The position numbers and the translations under genes are program-made. This document shows, in pieces, positions 3,098-61,561 of a DNA stretch of 64,000 nt (its first letter is position 1; each line of letters opens with the position of its first letter). The notes beneath the pieces were generated by a model that made no database searches, was not told the origin of the DNA, and worked only from the letters and a program-made list of their open reading frames with translations. Source of the DNA: Candidatus Omnitrophota bacterium (GTDB lineage: Bacteria > Omnitrophota > Gorgyraeia > Gorgyraeales > Gorgyraeaceae); the NCBI GenBank assembly GCA_043822665.1, contig JBDRBM010000050.1:22038-86037 (forward strand). The letters are read 5' to 3'.

Positions 3098-3195
3098 TAA
3101 AGTGTGCCCTACGCATTTGTCGCAAAGGCCTTCATAAGCGCCTTCTGTAGGGGAGGCTTAAGCCTCCCCTACAGAATACATTATAGCCTTTGCCT

Positions 3196-3522
3196 TTATT
3201 TACCATCTTCCCCATACTTGTCTACTACGCTCTTTTCCCACAGCTTTACGCCTGATTTATAGGCGCCCCGCGCAAGGGCATGCGCAGATACAGGAGACGT
3301 CAATATAAGAAACAACATGCACAAAAGCGCCTTTATGCCTATAGCTGTAATCCCATGAATAAGAAAGGCTCCAAAAAGTATACTGCATGTGCCAAGCGTT
3401 ATGCATTTTGTAGATGCCTGCAGCCTATTATAGACATCAGGAAGCCTTACCAGGCCCAGGCATCCTATAAAATCAAAGAAAAGCCCTATAGATATAAAAA
3501 TAATGCCGATTGTATTAATCAT
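3196..3522 (-). CDS. Mrp antiporter subunit G-like (MnhG/MbhC-like).
   Basis: 108 aa, 3 TM segments, and the LVRLPDVYNRLQAS motif typical of MnhG. Confidence 0.7.
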   Translation of the reverse strand: MINTIGIIFISIGLFFDFIGCLGLVRLPDVYNRLQASTKCITLGTCSILFGAFLIHGITAIGIKALLCMLFLILTSPVSAHALARGAYKSGVKLWEKSVVDKYGEDGK

Positions 3523-3889
3523 CCAATGATTTTCCCTCTAAAAATTTTGCCAAAGCAAGTGTGGCTATGAAACTTTGCAGTGCCCAGGCAATAGCTATAT
3601 CTATATACCAGCTTCTGTTAGTGGAAATCCCTGTTATAACACAGAAGCCGACTATCAGCACACCCAGCATGTCAAGCGTAACCGCCCTGTCAGCCGCGGT
3701 CGGACCCCTGGCAATTCTGTAAAGACACAATCCGCATGAGAATAAAAGTATAAAAAAAGCCCTTTTTAAAAACCCCGTGTAAGGCAGGCCCTTATAAAAA
3801 AGTATCGGCAGCGGATAAAATAATATCACTCCCAGAATACCCAATATAAAAACAGCCCCTATAATGTAACGCCGCCTATTCTTTTTCAT
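3515..3889 (-). CDS. Mrp antiporter subunit F-like.
   Basis: GPTAADRAVTLD motif characteristic of MrpF/MnhF. Small 3-TM protein. Confidence 0.7.
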   Translation of the reverse strand: MKKNRRRYIIGAVFILGILGVILFYPLPILFYKGLPYTGFLKRAFFILLFSCGLCLYRIARGPTAADRAVTLDMLGVLIVGFCVITGISTNRSWYIDIAIAWALQSFIATLALAKFLEGKSLDD

Positions 3890-4383
3890 TCCTCAAATAT
3901 CCTTTTAAGTATCTTCTCGAATTTCTCGACTATAGCCTTTGTCGCCTTCTCTATGTCCTTGTGCTTCACCTCAATCCAATGAATATAAAGGTATCCATTT
4001 TCTTTATCCACATCAACGGTTAATGTGCCGGGTGTAAGCGTTATTGAATTCGATAGAAATGTAAGCGCTGTCTCGGATTTAAGGATTGTCTTTACCTTTA
4101 CTATACCAGGGTGTATAGGTAAATCAGGGTGTATTACCCTGTATGCCACATCAATATTTGCCTTAAAGCACTCCCATAAAAAAACAGGGACATAATATAA
4201 AAACCACAGGTAGCGCATGGGGTGCGTAAATAGATGCGTCCTTTTTACAAAGAAATCCCCTGTCATATACGCGACAAATGCCGACACAATTATGCCTATG
4301 AATATGTGCTGCCAGTCAAACGCCCAACTCAACAATAACCATGTTATAAATCCCAGTATAAATAAAGTAATTCTACTAATCAT
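3886..4383 (-). CDS. Mrp antiporter subunit E-like.
   Basis: MnhE signature region (…ANIDVAYRVIHPDLPIHPGIV…SNSITLTPGT…). Confidence 0.7.
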   Translation of the reverse strand: MISRITLFILGFITWLLLSWAFDWQHIFIGIIVSAFVAYMTGDFFVKRTHLFTHPMRYLWFLYYVPVFLWECFKANIDVAYRVIHPDLPIHPGIVKVKTILKSETALTFLSNSITLTPGTLTVDVDKENGYLYIHWIEVKHKDIEKATKAIVEKFEKILKRIFEE

Positions 4384-4391
4384 TATTTAAT

Positions 4392-5888
4392 TTACCTTAT
4401 AGCCACGAATGCGGCCTTTGCGTAATCCTTACCCGCTAAAATCGCGTCCATGGCTGGACCAAGAAAACTTTCACGAATCCCCGGCAGTAAAAGTAACCCT
4501 CCTGCCAAACAGGCAGCAGCCAGTAATACCATTGACAATTTCATGAAAAATGGGCATTCTTTTATATTACTTAACTCTTTTTTTAATTCGCCGAAAAAGG
4601 CATATCTCTGGACTTTCATAAAATAAGCTAAGGTTAGCACGCTTGTCAAAACTGCCAATACAGCATACACAAAGTGTTGCGCCTGGATGCACGCTACTAT
4701 TATTATCAGCTTGCTCCAGAAACCATTAAAAGGCGGTATGCCGGCTATGGACATGGAACCTATTAAAGAGGTGGCAGATGTAACAGGCATCCTTTCTTTT
4801 AACCCGCCCATCTTCTGCAAATCTCTTGTGCCTGTAGCATACTCAACTGCTCCTGAATTTAAGAATAAGAGCGACTTAAACACAGAATGGTTTAATAAAT
4901 GAAAAAAACCTCCGAGGATCCCTAGTGGAGTGCCAAGGCCAATCCCAAGTATTACATACCCAATTTGACTAATAGAGCTATATGCTAAAAGTCTTTTGAA
5001 ATCCCATTGTCCAAGCGCAAGACACCCCCCAACAATCATTGATAAAGCGCCCAACAGCATTAGGGCATTTAATATCTGAGGTGTCGTGCCAAAAACACTG
5101 AAGAATATCCTTATCATTGCATAAACACCAAGGGACTTTATAAGAACTCCTGAAAGCATGGCTGAGATAGGGGCTGGAGCGGACGGATGGGCGTCGGGGA
5201 GCCATGCGTGAAACGGGACAAGCGCTGACTTTAGGCCAAATCCCATCAAGAAAAAGACGCTCACGAGCATTATTATACGCGGGCTCCCGCCTTTTGCGAT
5301 CTCCAACGACATGTCAGCCATATTTAAGGTAGAAGTAACGCTATATAAAAATACTATTCCTAAAAGTATAAACGAAGACGCCAGTGTTCCCATTACAGCG
5401 TATTTAAACGCTGCCTCAAGTTCTTCGTGCTCTGTGCCAAATGCGACCAGCGCATAGCTTGAAATAGCGGCTATTTCAAGAAATACATAAAGATTGAATA
5501 AATCTCCACTTATTATGACACCGTTCAGGCCGGCCACCATCAATAAGAACAGGCAATAGAAGACCCATTTTTCAGTGTATCTTTCCATGTAATCTATTGA
5601 ATATACGCTTATAAGAAACGCGATAATATTGACTGTAACCGCCATGAAGATAGTTAATCCGTCCATTACCATTGAAATGCCTATTGGCGGCGCCCACCCT
5701 CCCACTTTATACACTATCATGCCTGTCTCTTTAAAAAACAGCACATAGTATATTGAGAGGCAGGCAAGCGAAAAAGTAGCCGCGGCTGAAAGGATATCGG
5801 AAAATCCCTTTACCCTTTTCCCGAAAAGAGAATTTATAAACGCGGCGCCTAACGGAATTGCTACAAATAAAGGTAATAGTTTATGCAT
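4392..5888 (-). CDS. Mrp subunit D / NuoM-N-like antiporter-type membrane subunit.
   Basis: 498 aa, 14 predicted TM segments. The WLPDAHPSAPAPISAMLSGVLIKSLGVYAMIRI signature of the complex I antiporter-like family is present. Confidence 0.8.
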   Translation of the reverse strand: MHKLLPLFVAIPLGAAFINSLFGKRVKGFSDILSAAATFSLACLSIYYVLFFKETGMIVYKVGGWAPPIGISMVMDGLTIFMAVTVNIIAFLISVYSIDYMERYTEKWVFYCLFLLMVAGLNGVIISGDLFNLYVFLEIAAISSYALVAFGTEHEELEAAFKYAVMGTLASSFILLGIVFLYSVTSTLNMADMSLEIAKGGSPRIIMLVSVFFLMGFGLKSALVPFHAWLPDAHPSAPAPISAMLSGVLIKSLGVYAMIRIFFSVFGTTPQILNALMLLGALSMIVGGCLALGQWDFKRLLAYSSISQIGYVILGIGLGTPLGILGGFFHLLNHSVFKSLLFLNSGAVEYATGTRDLQKMGGLKERMPVTSATSLIGSMSIAGIPPFNGFWSKLIIIVACIQAQHFVYAVLAVLTSVLTLAYFMKVQRYAFFGELKKELSNIKECPFFMKLSMVLLAAACLAGGLLLLPGIRESFLGPAMDAILAGKDYAKAAFVAIR

Positions 5889-5945
5889 TATGTTCTCGTG
5901 TACCGTGTATCGTGTACCGTATATCGGGTATCGTTCATATAAAAA

Positions 5946-6284
5946 CTACCCTTTTAAGCTACGTATCTTCGTTATATCAAAGGTGCCGTATTTTTCATAC
6001 ACCCTCATGGCTATGGCCGCAATCAGGGCAGTAACCGCCAGGCCTATGACTATAGCGGTAAGGACAAGCGCCTGAGGTAATGGATCAACCATATCAAGTA
6101 TGGTCTGGTCAGGAGAATGTATCGGCGCTCGGCCGCCTATCTTATAGCCAATCAAAATAAAGAATAGATTTACGGCATACTCCATAACAGTTATGCCTAT
6201 AATAATCTTTATAAGATTCCTTTTTCTAACTATACAATATAGCCCTATGCAAAAAAGCACAAGGCACAAAAAATAGACTGTCAT
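5946..6284 (-). CDS. MrpC / NuoK-like small membrane subunit.
   Basis: 112 aa, 3 TM segments, NuoK/MnhC-like sequence. Confidence 0.7.
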   Translation of the reverse strand: MTVYFLCLVLFCIGLYCIVRKRNLIKIIIGITVMEYAVNLFFILIGYKIGGRAPIHSPDQTILDMVDPLPQALVLTAIVIGLAVTALIAAIAMRVYEKYGTFDITKIRSLKG

Positions 6285-6733
6285 TTTTTCTCGTCCTTTT
6301 TAGCAATCTTAAATAACACCAGCATTACAACGATAATAAAAAGTCCGGATCCTACTTTAAAACTTATGGCAATGTTGTATAAAGGTATAAGGCCCGAGCT
6401 GAATAGCTTAAAAGGCTCACCTTTTGATAGAAAATTCAAAAAGAAATACCCGCCGGCAATACCGAGAAGAGCTAATGTTATAAAAATTATAGCGCCTATA
6501 TTTTCAAAGAAAGAAGCAACGCCTTGGTTTATCTTCTTAAAGGCATCTTCTTTGCCAAAGGCCAGCATTATGTGGATAAACGAAAGCGCGATAATCACAC
6601 CCCCCGCAAAACCTCCTCCAGGGCTTAAGTGGCCATGAGCGACAATATAGATACCGAATAAGAGTATCAGGCCTACTGTAAGCCGAGTGATTGTCTTTAC
6701 TATTATTGTCATGCCTTTCTCCTGCTCTCTCAT
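6281..6733 (-). CDS. MrpB-like (MnhB domain) membrane subunit.
   Basis: GHLSPGGGFAGG motif (MnhB domain). Confidence 0.7.
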   Translation of the reverse strand: MREQEKGMTIIVKTITRLTVGLILLFGIYIVAHGHLSPGGGFAGGVIIALSFIHIMLAFGKEDAFKKINQGVASFFENIGAIIFITLALLGIAGGYFFLNFLSKGEPFKLFSSGLIPLYNIAISFKVGSGLFIIVVMLVLFKIAKKDEKK

Positions 6734-7248
6734 TTTTTCCTGCCTATCTTTCTCATGACTGCCACTACACCCATTACAGCTGTAAATAATATAGTTGCCT
6801 CTCCAAGTGTATCATATGCCCTGTAATCCAAAACTATAGATGTTATCAGATTTGCGGCGCCTGTTTCCTTTAGGCCCTGGCCCACAAAATGCTGGGCAAT
6901 TTTCATTATAGGACTGCCGAACTGGGGCAAGTCCCTCATGCAATAATAACCAAACCCTATAAATACCGCGAGGAAAATAAAAGTAATGAGCGTATTAAAA
7001 AACCACCTTCCGCTTGTCGAGAATGGCAAGTCCTTCCTTATGGTAGCTCTTATAAGGATTATAACACAGAGTATTTCTACTACGAGCTGGGCTATCGCGA
7101 GATCAGGGGCCTTAAGTATCAAAAACGCCAGGGACAAGCCAAGGCCTACTACCCCTACAGCAATAACAGAAGACAAAAGATCTTTTGTCTTTACTGCTAT
7201 AAGAGCACCTATAATCATGAATATTAAAAGAACTTGCAGTTCAATCAT
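6730..7248 (-). CDS. MrpA C-terminal-like (DUF4040, MbhD/E-like) membrane subunit.
   Basis: APDLAIAQLVVE motif and TM layout match the DUF4040 region of MrpA, which Mbh-type hydrogenases encode as a separate gene. Confidence 0.6.
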   Translation of the reverse strand: MIELQVLLIFMIIGALIAVKTKDLLSSVIAVGVVGLGLSLAFLILKAPDLAIAQLVVEILCVIILIRATIRKDLPFSTSGRWFFNTLITFIFLAVFIGFGYYCMRDLPQFGSPIMKIAQHFVGQGLKETGAANLITSIVLDYRAYDTLGEATILFTAVMGVVAVMRKIGRKK

Positions 7249-7252
7249 CTAC

Positions 7253-9055
7253 TTACCTCACGAAACTAAAAAGAAAAACCATCATGCCCAATAAGCACCA
7301 TACAAGATACGTAGGCAATACGCCGTTATGTAAATACTGGAATATGCCTATAAAGAAAAATACGAGTTTCTTGCCCTGCTCGTATATATCGAATGCCTTG
7401 TTCTCTGCCTTTTTATATAACCTTTTTATTAAAGGCATCTCTTCTATTGCCCTATAGAATTCTGTGCCGGAAAGTCTCATGTCACTATCAAGTTCTTCCC
7501 CGCCAATATAAGAACCCGTCTCTCTTATGCCTTTAAGATTACCCGCGAGATATATCAAAAGACCTATGCCAAGGCCTATTATTAAAAACACGGCGGCCTT
7601 TAAAGAAGGCCACATTCCGATAAAGGCAAAGTTTACTCCTCCCTCAGGCAGTGAGGGTATTATAAAATATTTCAAAGGAATAGTATACGCTAATACTCCA
7701 AAGACTATACAAAACCCCGCAAGTATCATCGGTGGAAGCCACATGGGCCAGGAGACATCTTTCTTCGATGCTTGATGCTCGATATTCGATGATTGTTTGC
7801 CTAAAAATATTGCGTGAATCAACTTGATAAACGACGCCAGCGTCAGGCCGCTTCCAAACATTGCCGCAACAAGACAAAAGATCCACAACACCCCTCCCGA
7901 CTTAGCCTTTTCCACCAGCCCCTGATAAACCATCCATTTTGAAAAGAAACCATTGAACGGCGGAATGCCTGATATAGATAAGGAAGCTATTAAAGTAGCT
8001 AAAAATGTCAGAGGCATTACTTTTGCCAACCCTCCGAGTGAATCCAGCTCCGAAGTCTTGGTCCTAAATTCCACATTCCCTCCTGACATAAACAGGCAGC
8101 ATTTATATATCGCATTATTAAGCATATGAAACAGCCCGCCCGCGATACCTATAGGATTACCTGTGCCAATGCCAAGCACCATATAACCTACCTGGCTTAC
8201 CGCATGATAACCTAATAATTTCTTAAAATCATGCTGGACGAGCGCCATCATTACAGCGGCTATTATTGTCACAGCGCCTATTACCATCAGAAGCGCGCAT
8301 GTGAAGCTATTCAATATAAATACATTCAATACCAACCTCGCTAAAAGATAGATGCCGAGTAATTTATCAAGACTGGCAGGCAGAAATGCGGTAACAGGTA
8401 TAGGCGCCTCTTTTGCTGTGTCAGGTATCCAAGTATGAAAGGGCATTGCGCCTGCCTTTGCAAACGCGCCAATGGCTATTAATAAAAACGCCCAGAACGT
8501 TATAGGGCTATCTATGACTATCTTTATATTGCTTAAATTCAAATCTCCCGTGATAAGCCAGACCAGGGCAAAGCCAAAAATCATCAAACTGTCGGAGCCG
8601 CCTATAATAATAAAGGTCTTTTTGCTCACGCCTGCGGCTTTGGATCCCCCTGCGTTAATCAACATGTAAAGCGTAAAACCCAGGAACCCCCAGGCCACTA
8701 TTAAAAGTACAATGTTATTCGAGATAGCGGCTAATATTGAAAATCCTATAGTCCATATAATATACGCGTAATATGAACGAAATTCTCTATAATAGGCCAT
8801 AAAGCGCCATGAATACAAAGTAACCAGGGCGCCAAAAAGCCCGATTGCCAGGACTATAAACCTGGAAAGTCCGTCCGCGTAAAGGTAATTCGCGTTGATC
8901 GGCGAATTAATAAATATCCTAACGCATCCGGCTAATAAATACAGCGCCGTAAGAAGGCTGAATGTCTCTACGATCTTTCTGAACCTCTTTGGAATCAAAA
9001 AGATTAAAATACCCGCTAATATCGAAATTAATATTGGTTGCAGTAATATTTTCAT
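7253..9055 (-). CDS. MrpA / NuoL-like antiporter-type membrane subunit.
   Basis: 600 aa, polytopic. The WIPDTAKEAPIPVTAFL…HAVSQVGYMVLGIG motifs of NuoL/MrpA are present. Confidence 0.8.
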   Translation of the reverse strand: MKILLQPILISILAGILIFLIPKRFRKIVETFSLLTALYLLAGCVRIFINSPINANYLYADGLSRFIVLAIGLFGALVTLYSWRFMAYYREFRSYYAYIIWTIGFSILAAISNNIVLLIVAWGFLGFTLYMLINAGGSKAAGVSKKTFIIIGGSDSLMIFGFALVWLITGDLNLSNIKIVIDSPITFWAFLLIAIGAFAKAGAMPFHTWIPDTAKEAPIPVTAFLPASLDKLLGIYLLARLVLNVFILNSFTCALLMVIGAVTIIAAVMMALVQHDFKKLLGYHAVSQVGYMVLGIGTGNPIGIAGGLFHMLNNAIYKCCLFMSGGNVEFRTKTSELDSLGGLAKVMPLTFLATLIASLSISGIPPFNGFFSKWMVYQGLVEKAKSGGVLWIFCLVAAMFGSGLTLASFIKLIHAIFLGKQSSNIEHQASKKDVSWPMWLPPMILAGFCIVFGVLAYTIPLKYFIIPSLPEGGVNFAFIGMWPSLKAAVFLIIGLGIGLLIYLAGNLKGIRETGSYIGGEELDSDMRLSGTEFYRAIEEMPLIKRLYKKAENKAFDIYEQGKKLVFFFIGIFQYLHNGVLPTYLVWCLLGMMVFLFSFVR

Positions 9056-10248
9056 TATATTTTATTTTTTGCGCTTCCTTGTCTCAATCTTTCTGTTTTC
9101 TCCTGCGAAAGACGTATCAAATCCTGGCCATCCATGACCTTTTTGCCGGTATTACAATCTACGACTGCCATGCGTTCAGTACAGCAATAGCACGGGTCAA
9201 CAGCGGCAAGTATTATTGTCGCGTCAGAAATAGTTCCCCCTATTACCGCTTTTTTATTGGATGCTATATTTACATAGCTCGGTGCCCTGACTTTATGCCT
9301 CGCGGGGCTATTACCGCCATCTGACATTACATAATGAAACACCTCTCCTCTTGGCGCCTCATGCCTGCCTATGCCCTCTCCTGGAGGCATATCCTTTATA
9401 TTAAGGTCTATGGGCCCTTTTGGCATCTTATCAAGGCATTGCAATATTATATTGGCGGATTCATAGAGCTCTAATATCCTGACAACCGCCTTTGCGAATA
9501 CGTCTCCGCCTTCCTGTGTGATAACCTTCCATTCTACTTTGTCGTATGCCGCATATGGGTCGTCTTTTCTTACATCTATCATGACGCCGGATGCCCTTGC
9601 GGTAGGGCCTACGCACGCGTAATCATGGACGTCTTGCCTTGTTAATACTCCTACGCCCTCTGTTCTTGCCCTTATCACAGGATCATCTATAACAGCGCCT
9701 TTAAACATGTCAAACTTAGGTATCAGATCCTTTAATGTCTTTTTTATCCATGGGAAATCCGCCTCATCAAGGTCCCTTCTTACTCCGCCTGGTTTAAACA
9801 TAGCATAGTGATTTCTGTTTCCGGAAATTCTTTCAAATATATCTAGTATAGGTTCCCTATATCTCCATGCCCACATCCATACAGTATTATATCCCAAAAA
9901 ATGCCCGGCAAGCCCGAGCCATAGAAGATGGCTGTGTATCCTTTCAAGTTCTCCGATTATGGTCCGTATATAAAGCGCCCTTTCAGGCACTTCCATGCCT
10001 AAAATATCATCTATCGCATTAGTGTAGGCAAAGGGGTGTGATGTTGAGCATATACCGCAAATCCTTTCAACAAGAAACGTCACCTGGTCATAGCTTTTTG
10101 ACTCGGCTATCTTTTCTATCATCCTGTGGTTATACCCGATCTCTATGTCGATATCAACAACTGTCTCGCCGTCCACATGCAACCTGAAAAACTCAGGTTC
10201 TTCCTGCAGCGGGTGATATGGCCCTATTGGTATAATTTTATCTGACAT
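9055..10248 (-). CDS. Group 4 [NiFe]-hydrogenase large (catalytic) subunit, NuoD/HycE/MbhL-like.
   Basis: N-terminal RICGICSTSH (RxCGxC) and C-terminal DPCYCCTER (DPCxxCxxR) Ni-Fe ligand motifs. A 46-aa C-terminal extension follows the Arg-Met site, which is the kind of site a HycI protease cleaves. Confidence 0.9.
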   Translation of the reverse strand: MSDKIIPIGPYHPLQEEPEFFRLHVDGETVVDIDIEIGYNHRMIEKIAESKSYDQVTFLVERICGICSTSHPFAYTNAIDDILGMEVPERALYIRTIIGELERIHSHLLWLGLAGHFLGYNTVWMWAWRYREPILDIFERISGNRNHYAMFKPGGVRRDLDEADFPWIKKTLKDLIPKFDMFKGAVIDDPVIRARTEGVGVLTRQDVHDYACVGPTARASGVMIDVRKDDPYAAYDKVEWKVITQEGGDVFAKAVVRILELYESANIILQCLDKMPKGPIDLNIKDMPPGEGIGRHEAPRGEVFHYVMSDGGNSPARHKVRAPSYVNIASNKKAVIGGTISDATIILAAVDPCYCCTERMAVVDCNTGKKVMDGQDLIRLSQEKTERLRQGSAKNKI

Positions 10249-10311
10249 AACGTAGCTTTCGGCTGTCAGCTATCAGCTATCAGCTTAGTGCTGATGGCTG
10301 AGGACTGATGG

Positions 10312-10749
10312 CTATTGCTGGTCTCTCCTCAAAGGATAATTCCCCTCTGGCCAGTCATCTTTCAAAAGTAAATGCTTTAAATTTGGGTGCCCCTTGAAAT
10401 CCACACCAAACATCTCATGTATCTCACGCTCTATCCACTCAGCGCATTTCATTATAGAAGCAAGGCTCTCTATTTCAAGGCCTGGTTTTTCTATAATAAC
10501 TCTCAGGGTGATTATAAGCCCAATTTCATCTATTGAGAAATGATAGAGTATTTCAATGGCATTCCTTGTGTCAACTCCTGACGCGGTAACAAACCTGGCT
10601 TTTACCTCGTTAAAAAGATATCTTACTATCTTTGGCAGGGCTTCTCTTTTTATAGTAAAATAAGTTCTGCGCTTTGATCTGTCAACAAAATCCACAAGGT
10701 CTTTACCTGAACGCACCTTTATATTTTCTATTATCTGTGTTTTTTTCAT
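10312..10749 (-). CDS. NuoC-like (30-kDa) hydrogenase subunit.
   Basis: 145 aa. The conserved E…HEMFGV…GHP…LLL block of NuoC/HycE N-domain/MbhK is present. Confidence 0.8.
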   Translation of the reverse strand: MKKTQIIENIKVRSGKDLVDFVDRSKRRTYFTIKREALPKIVRYLFNEVKARFVTASGVDTRNAIEILYHFSIDEIGLIITLRVIIEKPGLEIESLASIMKCAEWIEREIHEMFGVDFKGHPNLKHLLLKDDWPEGNYPLRRDQQ

Positions 10750-10798
10750 TTATTCTCTTTGGCGCTGTAGGGCAGGTTTAAACCTGCCCTGCCTATTC

Positions 10799-11224
10799 TC
10801 AGCCTTTGCCTTGAAGTTTTTTTATCAATTTTACTATTGCCGCTATCATTGCCTCTGGTTTTGGAGGGCATCCTGGGATATACGCGTCGACCGGTAGAAC
10901 TGAATCTACCGGATTAGGCGTATTTGGCCCTTTCGCGAATATGCCCTGCCCGCACGCGCACGCGCCTATAGCTATGACAACGCACGGTTTCGGGGCCTGT
11001 TCATAGATCCTTTTTATCCTTGGCATAGTCTTTAAATTCAGGGCGCCTGTAACAAGAATCGCGTCAGCATGCCTTATGCTTCCGACCAGAGTTATACCAA
11101 ACCTCTCAACATCAAACCTAGGAGTCAAAAGGTCAAGGATTTCTATGTCACAGTTATTACAACTGCCTGTTGACATATGATAAACCCAGATAGATTTGGT
11201 TAATGCCTTTAGCTTGAGACTCAT
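10799..11224 (-). CDS. NuoB-like hydrogenase small subunit (proximal 4Fe-4S).
   Basis: CxxC…GxCxxxG…GCPP cysteine pattern (…GACACGQGIF…YIPGCPPKPE…). Confidence 0.85.
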   Translation of the reverse strand: MSLKLKALTKSIWVYHMSTGSCNNCDIEILDLLTPRFDVERFGITLVGSIRHADAILVTGALNLKTMPRIKRIYEQAPKPCVVIAIGACACGQGIFAKGPNTPNPVDSVLPVDAYIPGCPPKPEAMIAAIVKLIKKLQGKG

Positions 11225-11239
11225 TAGATATTACCTCAC

Positions 11240-12146
11240 TTACATGCCTAACATTGCGAGCAATGCCGCTATTATAGCCAAAGAGGTCATTTTTCCCCAG
11301 AAAAATCTAAGCGCCTGGTCAATTCTGACCCTTGGATTTGTATTCCTGATAAGGATTATTATAACCAGTAAAATTATGTATTTCCAGACATTAAATCCGC
11401 CCCAGAATATTGAAGTCAAAAATACAGGCAACGCAACCATCATAATGGCCTTTGTAAGCTTTAAAACAGCTAAGAGGATGCCTGAGTATTCTATATATAT
11501 GCCGCCCATTATCTCTGTCTCTGCCTCTGCCATATCAAAAGGCACTAGGCCAAGTTTTGCCTGCATACAAAATATAGCCACCAATGTAGCGAGTATGCCT
11601 GAAATATTCCAGGCAAACGCCCCATTTATTATCTGATATGCTATAATATCCGTTATTCTTAAAAGGCCTCCGCTTTTAATAATAGGCACTGTAATACAAA
11701 CTATAAAAGGTAATTCATAGGCCAATATCAACTTTATTTCTCTTGATACACCAAGAGACGCCAGAGGATTTCCGCTCGCGGAAGAACCTAATATAAGAGC
11801 AATGGCCGGCACTGTCATTAAATATAAAACTACTATAATATCCCCTGTGAAACCACCCGCGCCTAATTTTATATTGGCCTGCCATATAAAGGTAGAGGCC
11901 AGGACAACAGCGCTAAGGCCAAAAAGAGGGGCTAAAAGAAAAACTGCCTTTTGGGCATTCTTTGGTATAGTAATTTCTTTTATGCTCAATTTAACAAGAT
12001 CCATAAGAGGCTGGTACCAAGGCGGCCCTACCCTCCACTGCACGCGAGCTGTAACCTTGCGATCTATCCAGCTTGCCACAAGGCCTATCGCGGCTGTAAA
12101 TAAGAAACCCGGAAATATTATAAAATCAAATAGATATTTAAGCATA
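11240..12146 (-). CDS. NuoH/HycD/MbhM-like membrane anchor subunit.
   Basis: Polytopic NuoH-family sequence. The ORF track starts at 12169 (TTG), but an in-frame ATG at 12146 (MLKYLFDF…) is the more plausible start. Confidence 0.8.
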
Positions 12147-12245
12147 AACTTTAAAACCCTAAATCCCAAACTCTAAATCCTAAACAAACCCTAAACCCCA
12201 AATCCCAAACCCAAAACTTTTCTTTAGAGTTTAGGGTTTCTCATT

Positions 12246-12728
12246 CTAAGGATGATACTTCTTCCACGGCTTAGCATGCACCGCTATATTCTTGCTTATT
12301 AAAAATATGTCGTCTTTTTCTGATTCTTCTATTTCTATAAATTTTATCGCGCCGCTTATAGAACATGTCTTTGAACATAGAGGATCATCATTGTCGCATC
12401 TGTCTATGCACGCATCGCATCCAGACACGATATACGGCACTGTATCTACAGGTATAGCTCCAAAGGGGCACGCCAGGCTGCAAGACTTACAGGATATACA
12501 GCGCATGGTATAACGCTTTACAACTCCGTCAGGCTGTTTTTCCAGAGCCTCTTTTGGACAGGCGCTTACGCATGGGGCTTCCTCGCATTTCCTGCATATA
12601 TAAAGATACTGGCCCATTTCTCTCAGACGTGTAATTCCTGAATTCTCAGGGTGATAATAATAACTGCATTCCGCCGTAGGAGTTTCGCGGCTATATAATT
12701 TTTCTAAATCTATAAATAGTCTCTTCAT
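12246..12728 (-). CDS. HycB/HydN-like poly-ferredoxin electron-transfer subunit.
   Basis: Three Cys clusters (CRKCEEAPCVSACP, CISCKSCSLACP, CDACIDRCDN…C). It sits between the NAD(P)H module and the hydrogenase core. Confidence 0.6.
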   Translation of the reverse strand: MKRLFIDLEKLYSRETPTAECSYYYHPENSGITRLREMGQYLYICRKCEEAPCVSACPKEALEKQPDGVVKRYTMRCISCKSCSLACPFGAIPVDTVPYIVSGCDACIDRCDNDDPLCSKTCSISGAIKFIEIEESEKDDIFLISKNIAVHAKPWKKYHP

Positions 12729-12803
12729 ATTTTTAGCTTTAAGCTATAAGAAAAAGATTTCGGTATATTTTGTTTTAAAAAAACTTAAAGCTTATAGCTG
12801 TTT

Positions 12804-13628
12804 TCAATCCCAGATTTCGTGTATATTATTTATCTTGTCATATCTAAATACCGGGCCGTCTTTACACGCGTAAAAATTTCCTATCCTGCAATGGCCGCAT
12901 TTACCTATGCCACAGCTCATGTTTTTTTCCATTGACAGATAAATCTGCTCGTTCTTATAACCTACCTCAAGCAGTTTAAACGTAGTAAATTTCATCATTA
13001 TAGGAGGGCCGCATACAATAACAACGCTATTTTTTAGATCTATCTTCAAATTATCCAGAGTCGTAGTGACAAGTCCAACATTGCCTTTCCAATCGTCGTC
13101 TTTTTTATCCACTGTAATTCTGAAATTTACTTTTTTGCTAATCTTCTGCCATTCATCCAGTACGCGGTCTTTATATATGATGTCGGAAGGTGTCCTTGAG
13201 CCACAGCAGAATAATATAGCTTTATATCTATCAAGATCATGAACCAGCGCTAAAAATAACGCCCTTAATGGCGCAAGCCCTACACCCCCTCCTACCAGGA
13301 GGATTTCTTTTCCCTCAAACTCAGAAAGAGGGTACTCGTTGCCATATGGCCCTCTCAAGCCTACTATATCCCCTTTTTTCAATTCATGGATCCTTGCTGT
13401 CACCCTGCCTGCTTTCATGACGCTGATCTCAAGTTTGCTTTTTTCATACGGAGAAGAAGACGGCGTAAAAGGCGCCTCTCCTACGCCTGGTATGGTCATC
13501 TCAATAAACTGGCCTGCCTTAAAATGCAGCGGCTTCTCAGGCTTTAAGGAAATGGTCTTAATAGTAGGGCTTTCTTCAGTAACCCTGACTACTTCTGTCT
13601 TTATTGGAGCGTATGGGTTATCTATCAT
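12804..13628 (-). CDS. FAD/NAD(P)-binding oxidoreductase subunit with C-terminal [2Fe-2S] (sulfhydrogenase gamma HydG / AsrB-like).
   Basis: Ferredoxin-NADP reductase fold motifs (LLVGGGVGLAPL, GSRTP) and C-terminal CGIGKCGHCRIG…C cluster. A 4-nt overlap (ATGA) couples it to the upstream gene. Confidence 0.75.
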   Translation of the reverse strand: MIDNPYAPIKTEVVRVTEESPTIKTISLKPEKPLHFKAGQFIEMTIPGVGEAPFTPSSSPYEKSKLEISVMKAGRVTARIHELKKGDIVGLRGPYGNEYPLSEFEGKEILLVGGGVGLAPLRALFLALVHDLDRYKAILFCCGSRTPSDIIYKDRVLDEWQKISKKVNFRITVDKKDDDWKGNVGLVTTTLDNLKIDLKNSVVIVCGPPIMMKFTTFKLLEVGYKNEQIYLSMEKNMSCGIGKCGHCRIGNFYACKDGPVFRYDKINNIHEIWD

Positions 13629-14650
13629 GATTGAAATTTACTCAGCACCTCATCGATGCGTATCTTTCCGGGACATGCCTCGCTGCACCTTCCACAGCCA
13701 GTACAGCCGAATTTCCCTATAACATTAGGAAAGAAATTAAATTTTTTATCAAAGCGATTGCGCAGCCGCGAGGCTAAGAGCTTCCTGGGATTTGCCCCTC
13801 CCGCCACCATTGCGAAAGAAAATAAAAGACACGAATCCCATAATCTCAATCTTTCAAAATTACCGTCTTTTCCCTGATCTTTTAACACAAAACAGTGGCA
13901 TGCCGGGCATATCACATTACAGGCGCCGCACTCAACACAGGTCTTGACGGTCTCCTCCCATAAGCCTGAGTCGAATTTTTTCTTGAAAAGAGGCTGTATT
14001 GAATCTTTCTCGGGAATATTTTTATTTTTTACATGCTCAAAAAGTTCTTCTTTTAGCCTTTTTCTATTCTCTTCTCTTTTATCTTTATAAAGTCCAGCTC
14101 CCTGAAAAAGCTTAAAGTGCTCTTTTGTTAGTTTTTCTCCCTTTTCAGAACCCACATCTACCACATATCCGCTCTCTATTTCAGAAAGATTGATGTCGAA
14201 GTCTTCTGTCGGGTACGGCATTATACCCAGGGCAACACAAAAACAGCTTTGCCCATAACAAGCGCAATCACTCGAAATTATAAGGCCTTCTTCTCTCCTC
14301 TGGATATAAAAAGGATCTTTAAGGGAATCCTGCCTGAATACGTAATCCATTATTTTTAACGAAGCTAAATCACATGACTTGGCGCCTAAGATTGCTGCTG
14401 GCCTGATTTTTTTACCCGGGAGGTCTTCTGAAAAATAATCGCTTACCTTTGTGCGGACAGGGAGGAAAAAACTCTTTATGCTTTGGACAGGCCTTATCTC
14501 TCCGAGAATAGCCTCACCCAACCCCTCATCTCCCACCTTTTTATAATACCTGTGGTCGCCCGACTTTACAGGCGCATAGGCCTTGTATGTCCTGGAAAGA
14601 GCTTTTACGAATCTATCCAGGTTGGGCCTATTGATAAAGTAAGTATCCAA
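13625..14650 (-). CDS. Fe-S subunit (sulfhydrogenase beta HydB / AsrA-like).
   Basis: CVECGACNVICPACHC and FGCTGCGRCSEACP motifs, paired with the HydG-like gene. It is the first gene of the operon. Confidence 0.7.
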   Translation of the reverse strand: MDTYFINRPNLDRFVKALSRTYKAYAPVKSGDHRYYKKVGDEGLGEAILGEIRPVQSIKSFFLPVRTKVSDYFSEDLPGKKIRPAAILGAKSCDLASLKIMDYVFRQDSLKDPFYIQRREEGLIISSDCACYGQSCFCVALGIMPYPTEDFDINLSEIESGYVVDVGSEKGEKLTKEHFKLFQGAGLYKDKREENRKRLKEELFEHVKNKNIPEKDSIQPLFKKKFDSGLWEETVKTCVECGACNVICPACHCFVLKDQGKDGNFERLRLWDSCLLFSFAMVAGGANPRKLLASRLRNRFDKKFNFFPNVIGKFGCTGCGRCSEACPGKIRIDEVLSKFQS

Positions 14651-14669
14651 GAAAATTAACCTCTGGAAT

Positions 14670-14699
14670 CAAAGTTTGTGAAAATTATCACAAACTTTG
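14670..14699. promoter_or_regulatory. CRP/FNR-family type operator: perfect 12-bp inverted repeat caaagtTTGTGAaaattaTCACAAactttg.
   Basis: TGTGA-N6-TCACA core with 12-bp arms. It lies between the predicted -10 box and the start codon of the hydrogenase operon, i.e. in the 5' UTR. Confidence 0.55.
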
Positions 14700-14726
14700 A
14701 AAAAAATAAAAAATAACTTCTTTTTG

Positions 14727-14755
14727 ACTATAATACAAAGATCTTTTTATGTCAA
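14727..14755 (-). promoter_or_regulatory. Sigma70-like promoter (TTGACA-17 bp-TATAGT) for the hydrogenase operon.
   Basis: Read on the minus strand, TTGACA lies at ~14755-14750 and TATAGT at ~14732-14727, 17 bp apart. This is ~75 nt upstream of the hydB-like start codon. Confidence 0.5.
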
Positions 14756-14784
14756 GGGGTTTTTACTGGAAACTAAGTCAAGTT

Positions 14785-14880
14785 AAGCAGCATAAGATGC
14801 CGCGGCTACAGTTTAGGCTGTAGTTGCAGCGCCTTGCGCTGCTTGTAAAAAGAAAATTCCTATACTATACTATCAAGTTA
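14785..14880. repeat. Composite dispersed repeat, copy 2 (A+E).
   Basis: Near-identical to copy 1 (~90% over 60 nt), followed by AAAGAAAATTCCTATACTATACTATCAAGTTAAGC. Confidence 0.7.
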
Positions 14881-14881
14881 A

Positions 14882-14921
14882 GCACATTAGTAGGGGACCC
14901 TTAAGGGTCCCCTACTAATGT
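14882..14921. repeat. Perfect 40-bp palindrome CACATTAGTAGGGGACCCTT|AAGGGTCCCCTACTAATGTG.
   Basis: Perfect 20-bp arms with no spacer. Member of a 3-copy family sharing the GACCCTTAAGGGTC core. Confidence 0.75.
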
Positions 14922-14927
14922 GTGCCT

Positions 14928-14960
14928 ACAAAAAGGAATTTCCTACTATATCAAGTTACG
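14928..14960. repeat. E-type repeat (AAAAAGGAATTTCCTACTATATCAAGTTA) immediately 3' of the NIL-ferredoxin gene stop codon.
   Basis: Shares ~25/28 nt with the copies at 14849, 54047 and 62571. Confidence 0.6.
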
Positions 14961-14966
14961 CGCTTA

Positions 14967-15374
14967 TTAAAAGTGTAACTCCATGGCCCGAGGCGGACAG
15001 GCCTTTATGCACAATTCACACGCAATACACTTATCATTGTAAAAAAGCACCTTGCGCGTAGCGGGTTCTATTACAAGGGCCTCGGTCGGGCATATTGGCA
15101 CACACGCGCCGCAATGGGTACACTTTGACTCGTTTCTCTTTATATCCTTTGAAAGAGGTTGAACTGTCACGCCTATTGATTTCGCGTATTTAATTGCCTT
15201 GTCAAAATTCTTTTGTTCTCCAGTCAGCTCAAGAACCAATAATCCCTCTTCCCTTGGCGTAACATATGCCTTAAGTATATTGAACTGAAGGTCAAAGTCC
15301 TTTACCATTTTGTATACTATGGGCTGGTCAACGAGTCTGTGCGGAAATTTTAGAACAATTCGCCTGGATACCAC
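14967..15374 (-). CDS. NIL-domain / 2x[4Fe-4S] ferredoxin.
   Basis: N-terminal NIL domain (…DFDLQFNILKAYV…) fused to CTHCGACVPICP and CIACELCIKACP motifs. The start is GTG per the ORF track; it overlaps the upstream gene by 47 nt. Confidence 0.7.
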   Translation of the reverse strand: MVSRRIVLKFPHRLVDQPIVYKMVKDFDLQFNILKAYVTPREEGLLVLELTGEQKNFDKAIKYAKSIGVTVQPLSKDIKRNESKCTHCGACVPICPTEALVIEPATRKVLFYNDKCIACELCIKACPPRAMELHF

Positions 15375-16119
15375 AGCTGCCTCCGTCTAATATTATATCT
15401 CCCCTCACCCCAAAATCCCTGCCGTAAATGATCAGCGCGCCCTTGATACCTTTTATAGAAACAGCGAAATTAAGAGCGGCCTTAATATCCTCGGCTTTTT
15501 TTACCCTATTACAAGCAGCTGTCGCGACAGCATCAGCCAAAGATGTGGATTTAGATATTATAACACAGGCATCGGCATTTCCAAAGCTTAAAGAATGGCC
15601 TACTGTACCAGACGAAGTACAGATACCGAGCGGTGTTTCTTCCGGTTTTATCTTTATAAAAATTTTATTAGTTAGAGGGGATTCTCCCGCATAAATGGCT
15701 ATGGTTCGTTCGATTTCAGTTCTTATAAAAATATCCCCTCCGTTTTCTACTATTACTTCTTTTGTGCTTTCCAGGAGAGTTTTTCCGACAAATTCAGCTA
15801 TCGCGCCAGCAACACTGGCCATGGGGCCAACTCCTGCCAGCGCAGACGAACGCGTCATTTCCTTTATGATATCTGAGGAATCAGGATCTAGCTTTAGAGG
15901 CTTAAGGCTCGTTTCAAAATCAGCACGTGTCTTTATGTAATCCTCTATCTGGCCCCTGTATTTTTTAACCAAATCCTCGGCAATCCCGCTTACATCTTTT
16001 CCGGCAGAGACAAAAAGATCAGTTTCCCCTACTATAACCTCACGCGTAATAAGGCCTTTCGCCTTAACCCATTTCCTGTAAAATCTTTTTTGGTAAGCCA
16101 TGTCAGGCCTTGACCTCAC
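15328..16119 (-). CDS. UPF0280-family (ApbE-like superfamily) protein.
   Basis: 263 aa. Resemblance to UPF0280 proteins (…GVGPMASVAGAIAEFVG…); low-confidence family assignment. It sits between hypA and the NIL ferredoxin. Confidence 0.45.
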   Translation of the reverse strand: MRSRPDMAYQKRFYRKWVKAKGLITREVIVGETDLFVSAGKDVSGIAEDLVKKYRGQIEDYIKTRADFETSLKPLKLDPDSSDIIKEMTRSSALAGVGPMASVAGAIAEFVGKTLLESTKEVIVENGGDIFIRTEIERTIAIYAGESPLTNKIFIKIKPEETPLGICTSSGTVGHSLSFGNADACVIISKSTSLADAVATAACNRVKKAEDIKAALNFAVSIKGIKGALIIYGRDFGVRGDIILDGGSCGIQANCSKISAQTR

Positions 16120-21186: not shown

Positions 21187-21224
21187 CACAATGTAGGTGA
21201 CCCTTAAGGGTCACCTACATTGTG
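21187..21224. repeat. Perfect 38-bp palindrome CACAATGTAGGTGACCCTT|AAGGGTCACCTACATTGTG.
   Basis: Lies in the intergenic region upstream of the metE-like gene. The sequence CTTATCCACAATGTAGGTGACCCTTAAGGGTCACCTAC is shared with the 61562 copy in opposite orientation. Confidence 0.75.
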
Positions 21225-21558: not shown

Positions 21559-22230
21559 TCAGGGCCTTATTTTCTTTAACCATCTTATCCTCCTTCTTCT
21601 TCTATCCCTATTATAACAAACAACCCCCAGGACATTAATGCCTGAAAGTTCTTCTATTATTGAAGGGTTTGTTTTTACAGCAAGATCTTTTTTTATGCGG
21701 CTGGCATAATTAAATATCACGCCGGCTATCGTTATGCCTTCAGCCTTTAGCATGCCTATGGTCATAATCGTGTGGTTTATTGTGCCGAGGTTCGGCCTTG
21801 CGACTAGGATAACAGGCAATTTCATTTTTGATATCATATCGCGCACATAAAATATTCTTTTCCCTGTCTTTTTTAAAGGTACCATCAATCCGCCAATGCC
21901 TTCTACTATCATAATATCTCTGTTCGAGCAAAGCTCCTCAAAACTCTGCCATATAATACTCAAATCTATTTTCTTTTTTTCCAGTCTCCCTGCCGCAAGA
22001 GGCGCCAGCGGATATCTTAATGCCACCGGGTTTATAAGATTTAAATCTGCCTTGAAATAGGCGGCTTTTTTTAAAATCCTGGCGTCAGAACAAGCCCTCC
22101 TGACACCTGTTGCCACTGGTTTCATCACAGCTACCTTTAGCCCTTTACGCGAGAAATACCTTGCCAGGCACGCCGCGACTTCTGTCTTTCCAACGCCTGT
22201 ATCAGTCCCTGTTATAAAAAATCCCCTCAT
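21559..22230 (-). CDS. bioD: Dethiobiotin synthetase.
   Basis: N-terminal P-loop GTDTGVGKT and overall BioD length/sequence. Confidence 0.85.
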   Translation of the reverse strand: MRGFFITGTDTGVGKTEVAACLARYFSRKGLKVAVMKPVATGVRRACSDARILKKAAYFKADLNLINPVALRYPLAPLAAGRLEKKKIDLSIIWQSFEELCSNRDIMIVEGIGGLMVPLKKTGKRIFYVRDMISKMKLPVILVARPNLGTINHTIMTIGMLKAEGITIAGVIFNYASRIKKDLAVKTNPSIIEELSGINVLGVVCYNRDRRRRRIRWLKKIRP

Positions 22231-23389
22231 TCTTTAGCCTCCGGAAAGCATCTATGGCTTTATCAATATGGGTATCTTTATGCGTGGCCATTATAGAAAC
22301 CCTTATCCTGCATTTATTTTTAGGCACTGTAGGCGGCCTTACGCCGGGCGCAAATATACCCATATCAAATAATCTTTCAGCTGTCCTCATTGTACTGGAA
22401 ACATCTCCTGTCAATACAGGCACTATTTGAGTCTCCGATCCCATTGTGTCAAAACCCAAACCTTTTAAGCCTGTTTTAAATCTTTCCGCGTTTTGCCATA
22501 ATCTTTTTCTTAAATCTTTATCTTTTATTGCTATTTCTATGGCCTTTATGCAACCTGAGACTATTGCGGGAGGCAGCCCAGTGGTATATATAAAAGATCT
22601 TGCCCTGTTACGTATATACTCTACAAGAGATCTGGATCCTGCTATATACCCGCCTAACGAACCAAATGCCTTACTGAGCGTCCCCATCTGTATATCCACA
22701 CCTTCTTTTATGCCGAAATGCTCGCATGTGCCCCTGCCTGTTTCACCAAGAACGCCGGCAGCATGAGCATCGTCTATCATTAACATCGCGCTAAATTTTT
22801 TTGCGATCCTCGCCAGATCAGGAATAGGCGCTATATCGCCATCCATACTGAAAACACCGTCTGTAATAATCAGTTTTTTCTTATACGCTGTTTCTTTTTT
22901 TAGGATCTCTTCTAATTTTCTTAGATTTTTATGCGGATAAACCCTGAGCCTTGCGCGGCTCAGCCTGACGCCGTCAAAGATACTGGCATGATTCAGTTTG
23001 TCGCATATCACAAGGTCATCTTCCCGGACAAGAGAGCTTATGGCGCCTACATTAGTCATATACCCGGTCGGAAAAACAATCGAGCGTTCTGTGTTTTTGA
23101 AATCAGCTATTTCCCGCTCAAGTTCCTCATGCAGGCTCATATTGCCTGAAATAAGGCGGGATGCGCAGGAGCCTGCGCCAAATTCTTTTACAGCATCAAT
23201 CTGAGCCTTTATTACTTCTGGATGGTTTGCTAAACCGAGATAATTATTAGAGGAAAAAAGGATTACTTCTCGTCCGTCGATTTTTACAACAGGGCCCTGG
23301 GCTGAATCAATTCTCTTCATCTCCTTGAAGAGCCCGAGTTTCCTTAATTCATCCAGCTCCTGCTGTAGCAATAAATCCAAGCCAACCAT
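22202..23389 (-). CDS. bioF: 8-amino-7-oxononanoate synthase (class II aminotransferase).
   Basis: PLP-enzyme motifs (…DDAHAAGVLG…, Lys in TLSKAFG) and the bio operon context. Confidence 0.8.
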   Translation of the reverse strand: MVGLDLLLQQELDELRKLGLFKEMKRIDSAQGPVVKIDGREVILFSSNNYLGLANHPEVIKAQIDAVKEFGAGSCASRLISGNMSLHEELEREIADFKNTERSIVFPTGYMTNVGAISSLVREDDLVICDKLNHASIFDGVRLSRARLRVYPHKNLRKLEEILKKETAYKKKLIITDGVFSMDGDIAPIPDLARIAKKFSAMLMIDDAHAAGVLGETGRGTCEHFGIKEGVDIQMGTLSKAFGSLGGYIAGSRSLVEYIRNRARSFIYTTGLPPAIVSGCIKAIEIAIKDKDLRKRLWQNAERFKTGLKGLGFDTMGSETQIVPVLTGDVSSTMRTAERLFDMGIFAPGVRPPTVPKNKCRIRVSIMATHKDTHIDKAIDAFRRLKNEGIFYNRD

Positions 23390-23406
23390 AATTAAAAAAT
23401 TCTACC

Positions 23407-24381
23407 CTATCTTACTACCATGGGCATGAATTCTGTTGAGCCAAACATGCCGTATATTCTGTGCTTCTTAAGCCAAAGCGCTCGTTTCATATAGCCAAGA
23501 GCAGGCCCTATCACATTGGCTGCCATGGAAGTCTCATCTCCGAGTATAAATCTGTGGCAGGATCGTTTACCTTCAAAGGTAACGCCTGTAAGTGTCATTG
23601 TGGTAGAAACCGGTTTTTTAGCATGCCGTGTATCCATCACACCGCCTACTGAAACTTTATCAAGAGAATCAATAACACCTGCTTTTTTAAGCAGTATATC
23701 GTCAGCGTGTTCCATATCGCGAAGAACAAGCCTTCCATCTGTCTTATTCAAGAGTTGTTCCACCTCTTCATCAGTCATTCTTTTTGCCCTGTTAACTGTA
23801 TACCCCGGCAGATGCGCGATATCTTCTCTGATTGTTGCCTTGTACGCGTCCCAGTTGGAAATACCTACTCCCCACCAAATATTCACATCTTCGATCTTTG
23901 TAAACGACTGCGCCGCCAAAACTGCCGCGGCTGACAAAATGCCAGGTGTCGCGCCACATCCGGCTATATACACGCTCTTATTCCTCTTTAATCCCGGGCT
24001 CAATCTCATCATCAACCTCATTGCGCTCGTACGTTTTAACGCACAGGTAAAGACTCCGCTATAACCTGCTTTTATAAAGCGTTTTAACACGCCGGGGATG
24101 AATTCATTTGGCAGATTTGGAAGAGCGGCAAAAATTCCGTCATATCTATCTTTGAGCTTTATAATCTCGCGTATCGAATCCTTTGAAGGTTTCATCTTAC
24201 TAAGGTCATTTACAGTTATTCCGTCCTTACAATATAAATATCCGCGCGAATCGCAAATAGCTACAACTTTTGCCTCTCTTTTTTTTGCCGCGACTTCAAG
24301 ACACGCCCTGCCAATGCCTCCTGCTCCCAGCACCGCAATCTTAATCTTCTTCATAATCCCTCCTATTAAGTTCAAAACCAA
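23407..24381 (-). CDS. Saccharopine-dehydrogenase-like NAD(P)-Rossmann protein. Candidate BioU-type (BioA-replacing) DAPA-forming enzyme.
   Basis: N-terminal IAVLGAGGIGRA dinucleotide-binding motif. 324 aa. It is embedded between bioB and bioF in an operon that lacks bioA. The functional assignment is inference from context. Confidence 0.5.
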   Translation of the reverse strand: MVLNLIGGIMKKIKIAVLGAGGIGRACLEVAAKKREAKVVAICDSRGYLYCKDGITVNDLSKMKPSKDSIREIIKLKDRYDGIFAALPNLPNEFIPGVLKRFIKAGYSGVFTCALKRTSAMRLMMRLSPGLKRNKSVYIAGCGATPGILSAAAVLAAQSFTKIEDVNIWWGVGISNWDAYKATIREDIAHLPGYTVNRAKRMTDEEVEQLLNKTDGRLVLRDMEHADDILLKKAGVIDSLDKVSVGGVMDTRHAKKPVSTTMTLTGVTFEGKRSCHRFILGDETSMAANVIGPALGYMKRALWLKKHRIYGMFGSTEFMPMVVR

Positions 24382-25327
24382 GATCCTTTACCATCTGTAA
24401 ATCCTCTTCCACAGACCTTCCTTTTGTCGTGAGATACCCTCCTATGATCATGCCGTTTGCTCCTGCCATAAATGCCATGGCCTGTAAGTCCCGCAGGCCC
24501 TGCTCTCTGCCGCCTGCTACCTTTATTATTGCTTTAGGCAAGATCAGCCTGAAGACCGCTATTGTCTTAATCGCCTCTAATGGCTCAACGGGTTTAACAT
24601 GCTCGAGCGGGGTGCCTTTTCCCGGATTAAAAATATTTACCGGAACACAGCCTATGTTCATCTCCTTCAACGTAAATGCCAGATTTAATCTTTCTTCAGG
24701 GCCTTCTCCCAGCCCTATTATACCGCCGCAACACGGCCTTACTCCTGTTTTTTTCAGCATACCAACCATGCTTAGCCTGCTGTCATAGGAATGCGTAGTG
24801 CATATATTTTTGTAAAATCCCCGCGACGTTTCCAGATTATGGTTAAACCTGTCAATCCCCAGCGCCTTTAACTCTCTAATCATCCCTATGTTAAGCTTGC
24901 CGAGAGAACAATCTACCTTGATACGAACTATTTTATTTATCTTCCTTATAGCCTCTTTTATTTTTTCAAATTCTTCTTCGGTAGGGCCTTTTCCGCTTAT
25001 TACAATGCAAAAATTTGATGCGCCTTGTTTTTTCGCGGCCTTGGCTGAGCCTATCATCTTACTGACACTTACCAGCGGATAAGTCTTGCGCCCTGTCTTA
25101 TATCTCGACGACTGGCTGCAGAATCCGCAATCTTCCGAACATAATCCGCTCTTGGCGTTAATCAAAGAACACAGATCCATCTTATTGCCGCAAAATTTCC
25201 TCCGTATTAAATCAGCAGTATGCATCAGGAGTAATAAATCTTCGCTTTTGGCGGCCAGGAGTTTCTCTGCTTCTCTAAATCCTAACTCTTTCCCGGAAAG
25301 TATTTCTTCAAGAATAGATTTAATCAT
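24341..25327 (-). CDS. bioB: Biotin synthase (radical SAM).
   Basis: CSEDCGFC radical-SAM motif and BioB-like length and sequence. Confidence 0.85.
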   Translation of the reverse strand: MIKSILEEILSGKELGFREAEKLLAAKSEDLLLLMHTADLIRRKFCGNKMDLCSLINAKSGLCSEDCGFCSQSSRYKTGRKTYPLVSVSKMIGSAKAAKKQGASNFCIVISGKGPTEEEFEKIKEAIRKINKIVRIKVDCSLGKLNIGMIRELKALGIDRFNHNLETSRGFYKNICTTHSYDSRLSMVGMLKKTGVRPCCGGIIGLGEGPEERLNLAFTLKEMNIGCVPVNIFNPGKGTPLEHVKPVEPLEAIKTIAVFRLILPKAIIKVAGGREQGLRDLQAMAFMAGANGMIIGGYLTTKGRSVEEDLQMVKDLGFELNRRDYEED

Positions 25328-61402: not shown

Positions 61403-61478
61403 ATTTTCCTCCTTTTGTAACCAATCTACTCTATTATGTTTACTAACTTTTTATACCACTTAAAATCTCTTTTGTCAA

Positions 61479-61561
61479 TAATCATTTCTTAATCATTTCT
61501 TAATCATTTCTTAATCATTTCTTAAACATAATCAAATTCTGCCCGTAATCAAATTCTGCCC
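61479..61561. repeat. Tandem repeats: (AATCATTTCTT)x4 followed by (AATCAAATTCTGCCCGTA)x2.
   Basis: Direct tandem copies in the divergent promoter region, immediately adjacent to palindrome copy 3. Confidence 0.7.

Follow-up and report, generated by a model that had tools for sequence, protein, structure and literature searches.

A predicted Rex operator at the promoter of a membrane-bound [NiFe]-hydrogenase operon in Candidatus Omnitrophota

The window, that is, the whole 64,000-nucleotide stretch of Candidatus Omnitrophota DNA that was analysed, carries on its minus strand an operon of 15 genes encoding an Mbh/Mrp-type [NiFe]-hydrogenase. The first gene (13625..14650, TTG start) is hydB-like, with a Fer4_22 domain and similarity to the sulfhydrogenase beta subunit; its product shares 100% identity with MFH1854608.1, a protein of a Candidatus Omnitrophota MAG. 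This agrees with the preliminary description of this DNA, where a hydB-like gene had been placed at the head of a hydrogenase operon. The second, hydG-like gene (12804..13628) encodes FAD/NAD(P)-binding and Fe-S domains. The remaining part of the operon (3196..12728) encodes a ferredoxin, a NuoH/MbhM-like protein, the small subunit, the 30K subunit, and the [NiFe] large subunit (9055-10248), and then an Mbh/Mrp antiporter-like set extending to position 3196 (MbhH-like, MbhD/E, MnhB, NuoK-like, MrpD-like, MnhE, MrpF, MnhG). The gene order is the same in relatives. Upstream of hydB on the same strand are hypF, hypC, hypD, hypE, hypA, an AbpE-like gene and a NIL-ferredoxin gene.

The operon (3196-14650, minus strand) combines two types of components: at the head of the genes of a membrane-bound group 4 [NiFe]-hydrogenase of the Mbh/Mrp type stands a HydB/HydG-like NAD(P)H/FAD module of the kind typically found in soluble group 3b sulfhydrogenases. 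The same arrangement is kept across many Omnitrophota loci and is also found in Atribacterota. It suggests that the product may be an ion-coupled NAD(P)H:H+ oxidoreductase.

The upstream region of the operon reads, on the minus strand, cccTTGACA-(17 nt)-TATAGT-caaaaagaagttaTTTTTTATTTTTT-TCAAAGTTTGTGA-TAATTT-TCACAAACTTTGA-ttccAGAGGttaattttcTTG. The TTGACA-17-TATAGT promoter reported earlier upstream of the hydB-like gene is indeed present at 14755-14727. Its -35 hexamer TTGACA, as read from the sequence, occupies positions 14750..14755, and the -10 hexamer TATAGT, separated from it by a 17-nt spacer, occupies positions 14727..14732. With 11 of 12 consensus positions matched, this site scores highest among the promoter-like sites within 14000-15500. 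The hexamer spacing places the predicted transcription start near 14720. The putative 5' UTR contains a T-rich tract TTTTTTATTTTTTT (14700..14713, minus strand) directly upstream of the candidate operator. A ribosome-binding site AGAGG, also read from the sequence, is at 14660..14664 on the same strand, 9 nt before the start codon. The start codon of the hydB-like gene is TTG at 14650; the aligned position is ATG in two relatives (L012 and L018).

The segment TCAAAGTTTGTGA-TAATTT-TCACAAACTTTGA (14669..14700, read from 14700 to 14669 on the minus strand) is a perfect palindrome with 13-bp arms and a 6-bp spacer, and it ends 18 nt before the TTG start codon. A perfect inverted repeat with 12-bp arms had been described here; the repeat stands, with arms one pair longer, and the spacer given as AAATTA is the plus-strand reading of TAATTT of the coding strand. 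Within the palindrome lies the predicted Rex-type operator TTGTGATAATTTTCACAA (14676..14693, minus strand), about +28 to +45 from the predicted transcription start. It agrees with TTGTGAA-N4-TTCACAA at 13 of the 14 specified positions, and its centre is AATT; the centre is W4 in 16 of the 17 unique orthologous sites. The perfect TGTGA-N6-TCACA core is located at 14677-14692. When up to one mismatch is allowed, this core occurs once over 64 kb, the expected number being 1.03, and so it is not rarer than chance. Scored with a matrix built from orthologous sites, the full site has 33.4 bits; the maximum in 30 shuffles was 22 bits, and the next real match has 11 bits. No second site was found in the 64-kb window by the matrix scan, and the box is single-copy there. 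Only the window and its closest relatives have the outermost 6-7 bp of each arm; in most relatives these pairs are broken. The palindrome is real, conserved and functional-looking.

The comparison set consisted of 85 related hydB loci (designated below by L numbers), plus five more with 10-kb flanks around closer relatives. When nine promoters of the window clade are aligned, the -35 hexamer, the -10 region and the box are invariant and the flanks diverge. At HydB identities down to approximately 43%, where the flanks can no longer be aligned, the word TTGTGA(T/A)-N4-TTCACAA(A) is still found before hydB. Related loci totalling 498 kb contain 23 perfect TGTGA-N6-TCACA cores, each of them situated upstream of hydB or of rex/the gene preceding hydB. 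In the matrix scan, an upstream site exceeded the maximum of the within-gene control (10.1 bits) in 29 of 74 loci. The left half-site is TTGTGAT and not TTGTGAA, and this asymmetry is conserved among relatives. Several sister lineages with 66-70% HydB identity have no box, as is typical of regulon turnover.

The palindrome is very probably the operator of the redox-sensing repressor Rex, positioned on the sigma-70-type promoter of the hydrogenase operon. This assignment is supported by the conserved word TTGTGA(T/A)-W4-TTCACAA(A), which equals the published consensus of Rex operators. The consensus is given as TTGTGAANNNNTTCACAA, after Ravcheev et al. 2012, in a study in which binding was shown by EMSA (PMC6391272). 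The consensus TTGTGAAW4TTCACAA, with binding shown by EMSA/gel shift, was also reported elsewhere (PMC2883068).

The open reading frames directly upstream of hydB in L021 and L022 encode Rex. They match the NCBIfam equivalog NF003993 with 253-271 bits, the cutoff being 217 bits, as well as Pfam domains PF06971 and PF02629, and the protein can be aligned over its entire length with Rex proteins of known crystal structure (5ZZ5, 7WB3 and 3IKT; E about 1e-48). Lys49, Arg60 and Gly61, DNA-contact residues of Rex (PMC8836258), are conserved in this alignment. In 17 related loci hydB is immediately preceded, on its own strand, by a gene for a Rex homologue. Two gene orders were observed: either the box precedes rex and hydB, forming an autoregulated operon, or rex is followed by the promoter with the box and then by hydB. 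The box is also found before rex itself in L021, L022, L031, L066, L083, L096, L125 and L132; this is the known pattern of autoregulation.

A scan of GTDB genomes with the pattern TTGTGATWWWWTTCACAAA produced at least 119 stretches, which are a sample and not a census of the regulon. Among the matches listed, rex, the box, hydB, hydG and the gene for the [NiFe] large subunit occur together in an Atribacterota MAG (L155), and partial versions of this arrangement are seen in L149 (Omnitrophota), L108 (Atribacterota) and L118 (unclassified). The rex gene is linked to the box or the operon in at least four sampled genomes (L149, L155, L108, L118), and at least three further MAGs have the box upstream of rex. 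One Omnitrophota match (L105) falls within a coding region and is probably a chance occurrence. From these observations we infer that the palindrome in the window would be bound by Rex, that expression would respond to NADH, and that the source genome probably contains rex. Four points weigh against the Rex reading: no rex gene was found in the 64-kb window or near the operon in close relatives, the left half-site deviates from the consensus, some sister lineages have no box, and the location near +36 is further downstream than that of the promoter-overlapping Rex sites mapped in S. aureus (PMC2883068).

Some variation of the box was observed. An identical 18-mer is common to the window clade, the L041-type loci (43-46% HydB identity), the Atribacterota MAG L155 and the unclassified MAG L118. 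With respect to the gene, the asymmetric box TTGTGAT...TTCACAA points the same way in 14 of the 17 unique sites. In L001-L003, L208 and L209, which are the closest relatives, it is inverted and one half-site is mutated to TCACT. In L021 (2220-2360) the Rex box lies inside a palindrome of approximately 56 nt upstream of rex, and two variant boxes with the right half GTACAA, TTGTGAcaagtgGTACAA and TGTGAaaaataGTACAA, are found after the rex promoter. The GTACAA variant is also present in L037 and L058, and a GCACAA variant in L034, L066 and L083.

One alternative is that in the lineage of the window the Rex-like box is the target of some other repressor, or that it is a non-regulatory dispersed palindromic repeat. 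Indeed, rex is not adjacent to the operon in the window clade: no rex gene was found in the 64-kb window, nor in the 10-kb flanks of the operon in close relatives. The window is also rich in further palindromic elements. However, unlike the GTAGG...CCTAC repeat family described below, the box is single-copy in the window, and it is kept while its flanks diverge. The same 18-mer is also found where rex adjoins (L041-type loci, L155, L118). We consider this alternative distinctly unlikely.

The preliminary description ascribed the palindrome to the CRP/FNR superfamily (CRP, CooA or HcpR-like proteins) and suggested redox-, CO- or cNMP-responsive control. The TGTGA-N6-TCACA core is identical to the CRP half-site arrangement, and it is shared with the E. 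coli CRP site AAATGTGATCTAGATCACATTT. However, the bases next to the core differ: the E. coli consensus has A/T flanks, A-TGTGA...TCACA-T, whereas T-TGTGA and TCACA-A, the T/A flanks of Rex boxes, are found in all 17 unique sites. CRP sites are usually located upstream of the promoter at activator positions. All boxes that could be positioned are at or downstream of the -10 hexamer, and never at an activator position (-41.5, -61.5 etc.). A search of 1,425 ORFs from the window and the 85 related loci, with iteration and with E. coli CRP and FNR queries, yielded no CRP/FNR-like ORF at E <= 1, and no cNMP-binding or HTH_Crp domain was detected by Pfam in the regulator-sized ORFs of the window. 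The regulator genetically linked to the box is Rex and not CRP. The TGTGA-N6-TCACA pattern alone does not identify a CRP site, and the proposed family is not supported: the conserved word is the Rex consensus, and rex is linked in 17 related loci. A CRP/FNR-type site is very improbable. The suggestion of redox control is probably correct, with the NADH/NAD+ ratio as the best reading, but sensing of cNMP or CO is unlikely, given the Rex consensus, the linkage of rex, the lack of CRP/FNR-like ORFs in the set searched and the non-CRP flanks.

The palindrome could also act mainly at the RNA level, as a hairpin in the 5' UTR that stabilises the mRNA, affects translation or serves as an attenuator. 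The leader in the window does fold, with the 13-bp stem forming part of a structure of -23.2 kcal/mol (z = -5.3 against shuffles). However, such a fold follows automatically from any perfect palindrome. Covariation in the stem (0.049) equals the mean of shuffled alignments (0.049), and most relatives have mismatches in the outer pairs. In L022, L025, L031, L066, L083 and L118 the box directly adjoins the -10 hexamer, and its left arm therefore falls upstream of the predicted transcription start. No Rfam match was found in the window. A primary role as an RNA hairpin has about as little probability as the CRP/FNR site.

Two further candidates were rejected. The stem is not an intrinsic terminator or attenuator, as it is not followed by a U-run on either strand. 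Operators of the LacI type have a central CG and a different spacing of half-sites; a LacI-family regulator encoded in the window (25443-26444, minus strand) was discarded as the binding protein because its operator type differs and its gene is located beside biotin genes. The latter form a biotin-synthesis cluster, bioB, bioF and a bioD-like gene (21559-25327), that adjoins the regulator gene.

The position of the predicted Rex operator is compatible with repression. In 27 of 31 box-bearing loci the promoter, with the -35 hexamer TTGACA, is of the near-consensus type TTGACA-N16-18-TAnnnT and matches at least 10 of 12 consensus positions, and the box starts from -1 to +41 nt after the -10 hexamer. 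This is a repressor geometry, since a promoter that strong needs no activator. It is also in line with the earlier proposal that a site downstream of the transcription start would act as a roadblock for a repressor.

Rex binds DNA in its NAD+ form; once NADH is bound, the winged-helix domains swing out of register and the operator is freed (PMC8836258). In the proposed mechanism, at a low NADH/NAD+ ratio a Rex dimer with NAD+ would occupy the box and form a roadblock to RNA polymerase that has just initiated. As NADH builds up, the conformational change of Rex would release the DNA, the hydrogenase would be expressed, and the excess of reducing power could be vented as H2. Derepression by the NADH/NAD+ ratio would be physiologically sensible, as the operon begins with the NAD(P)H-binding HydB/HydG-like module.

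The leaders differ in one more respect. In all 12 loci where the box is 29-41 nt past the -10 hexamer, a run of T6-T9 ends 6-16 nt before the box; leaders with a promoter-proximal box have no such tract. The combination of the tract with a far-downstream box, at about +30 to +45, is also present in lineages whose HydB is only 44-45% identical to that of the window. Leaders equivalent to 14700-14713 of the window were observed in L001-L018, L068, L071, L149, L205 and L207. One possibility is that the T6-T9 tract and the far-downstream Rex box together form a "U-tract-assisted roadblock terminator". The hybrid in a polymerase stalled at Rex would then be weak and rU:dA-rich, and the enzyme would dissociate, in a protein-dependent analogue of the intrinsic terminator where the repressor takes the place of the hairpin. 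This prediction is speculative and on balance rather doubtful. The TTGTGAT/TTCACAA asymmetry and the fixed orientation of the box could be part of the same directional roadblock design.

The closest parallel is found in Caldicellulosiruptor bescii, where Rex represses the operon of the membrane-bound Ech [NiFe]-hydrogenase and its own gene (PMC6391272). The C. bescii ech and rex systems and the present one share an 18-bp TTGTGAA-N4-TTCACAA-type box before a multi-gene group 4 hydrogenase operon, autoregulation of rex, and the logic of NADH-dependent derepression of H2 production, which is here a prediction (PMC6391272). The differences are that C. bescii belongs to Firmicutes, whereas the present loci are from Omnitrophota and Atribacterota, and that the hydrogenase is not Ech but of the Mbh/Mrp type with a HydB/HydG-like NAD(P)H module. 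Moreover, the box in the window is centred at about +36 from the predicted start and has the conserved half-site TTGTGAT.

The Rex boxes of Staphylococcus aureus have the same consensus and AT-rich W4 centre (PMC2883068). They coincide in position with SigA promoters and presumably act by hindering the polymerase (PMC2883068). However, they are situated in the promoter or a few base pairs away, whereas the site in the window is approximately 33 nt past the -10 hexamer; rex of S. aureus is not autoregulated (PMC2883068). The regulon of Thermotoga maritima Rex includes genes of hydrogen production (PMC8836258). The Omnitrophota Rex matches the full length of the T. maritima protein from the complex with the TM0201 operator described in PMC8836258 (7WB3; E about 1e-48), and K49, R60 and G61 are kept. 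The natural operators of T. maritima are likewise imperfect and asymmetric, ATTTGAGAAATTTATCACAAAA (PMC8836258). Their sequences differ in details from the present box, and experimental characterisation is available for the T. maritima complex.

The Rex box, together with rex adjoining the operon in many relatives, provides regulatory evidence that would tie the HydB/HydG-Mbh/Mrp hydrogenase to the NADH/NAD+ balance. It points to a valve for excess reductant, with H2 evolved during fermentation. Omnitrophota and Atribacterota are almost wholly uncultivated, and their physiology is inferred from genes. The predicted Rex regulon is extended to further phyla, although the redox switch itself is of an ordinary, well-known kind. 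The motif TTGTGAT-W4-TTCACAAA can be used for reconstruction of regulons in MAGs of Omnitrophota and Atribacterota. The change of the label from CRP/FNR to Rex corrects a plausible mis-annotation.

Several other repeats were observed in the window and in related loci. A family of GC-rich perfect palindromes GTAGG(G/T)GAsssTTAAsssTC(C/A)CCTAC has four copies in the window (3143-3176, 14883-14922, 21187-21224, 61562-61587), the expected number being 0.36, and every copy lies between genes. Those at 21187 and 61562 have in common a longer unit ...CCTACATTGTGGATAAGTnnAATTTAA and are located upstream of gene starts. Similar elements are present in relatives, for instance GTAGGCCAGGTTTAAACCTGGCCTAC in L001. 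These palindromes could be REP-like elements or sites of another regulator.

The region between the stop codon of the NIL-ferredoxin gene and the -35 hexamer of the hydrogenase promoter (14772-14962, minus strand) contains three direct copies of (G/T)TAACTTGA(T/C). The first two copies are each followed by an AT-rich module of approximately 30 nt (TAGTAtAGGAAtTTyCTTTTT) and a different hairpin. This region looks like a tandemly duplicated intergenic module. Two assemblies of one population, L001 (2870-2895) and L002 (2860-2890), differ by extra copies of the repeat gaaatgaaggcg directly upstream of the -35 hexamer. Elsewhere in the window, an ORF of 2,018 aa is located at 45156-51212 on the minus strand. 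Finally, a divergent intergenic region (61470-61560) beside one of the GC-rich palindromes contains tandem repeats, four copies of aatcatttctt and two copies of gtaatcaaattctgccc.
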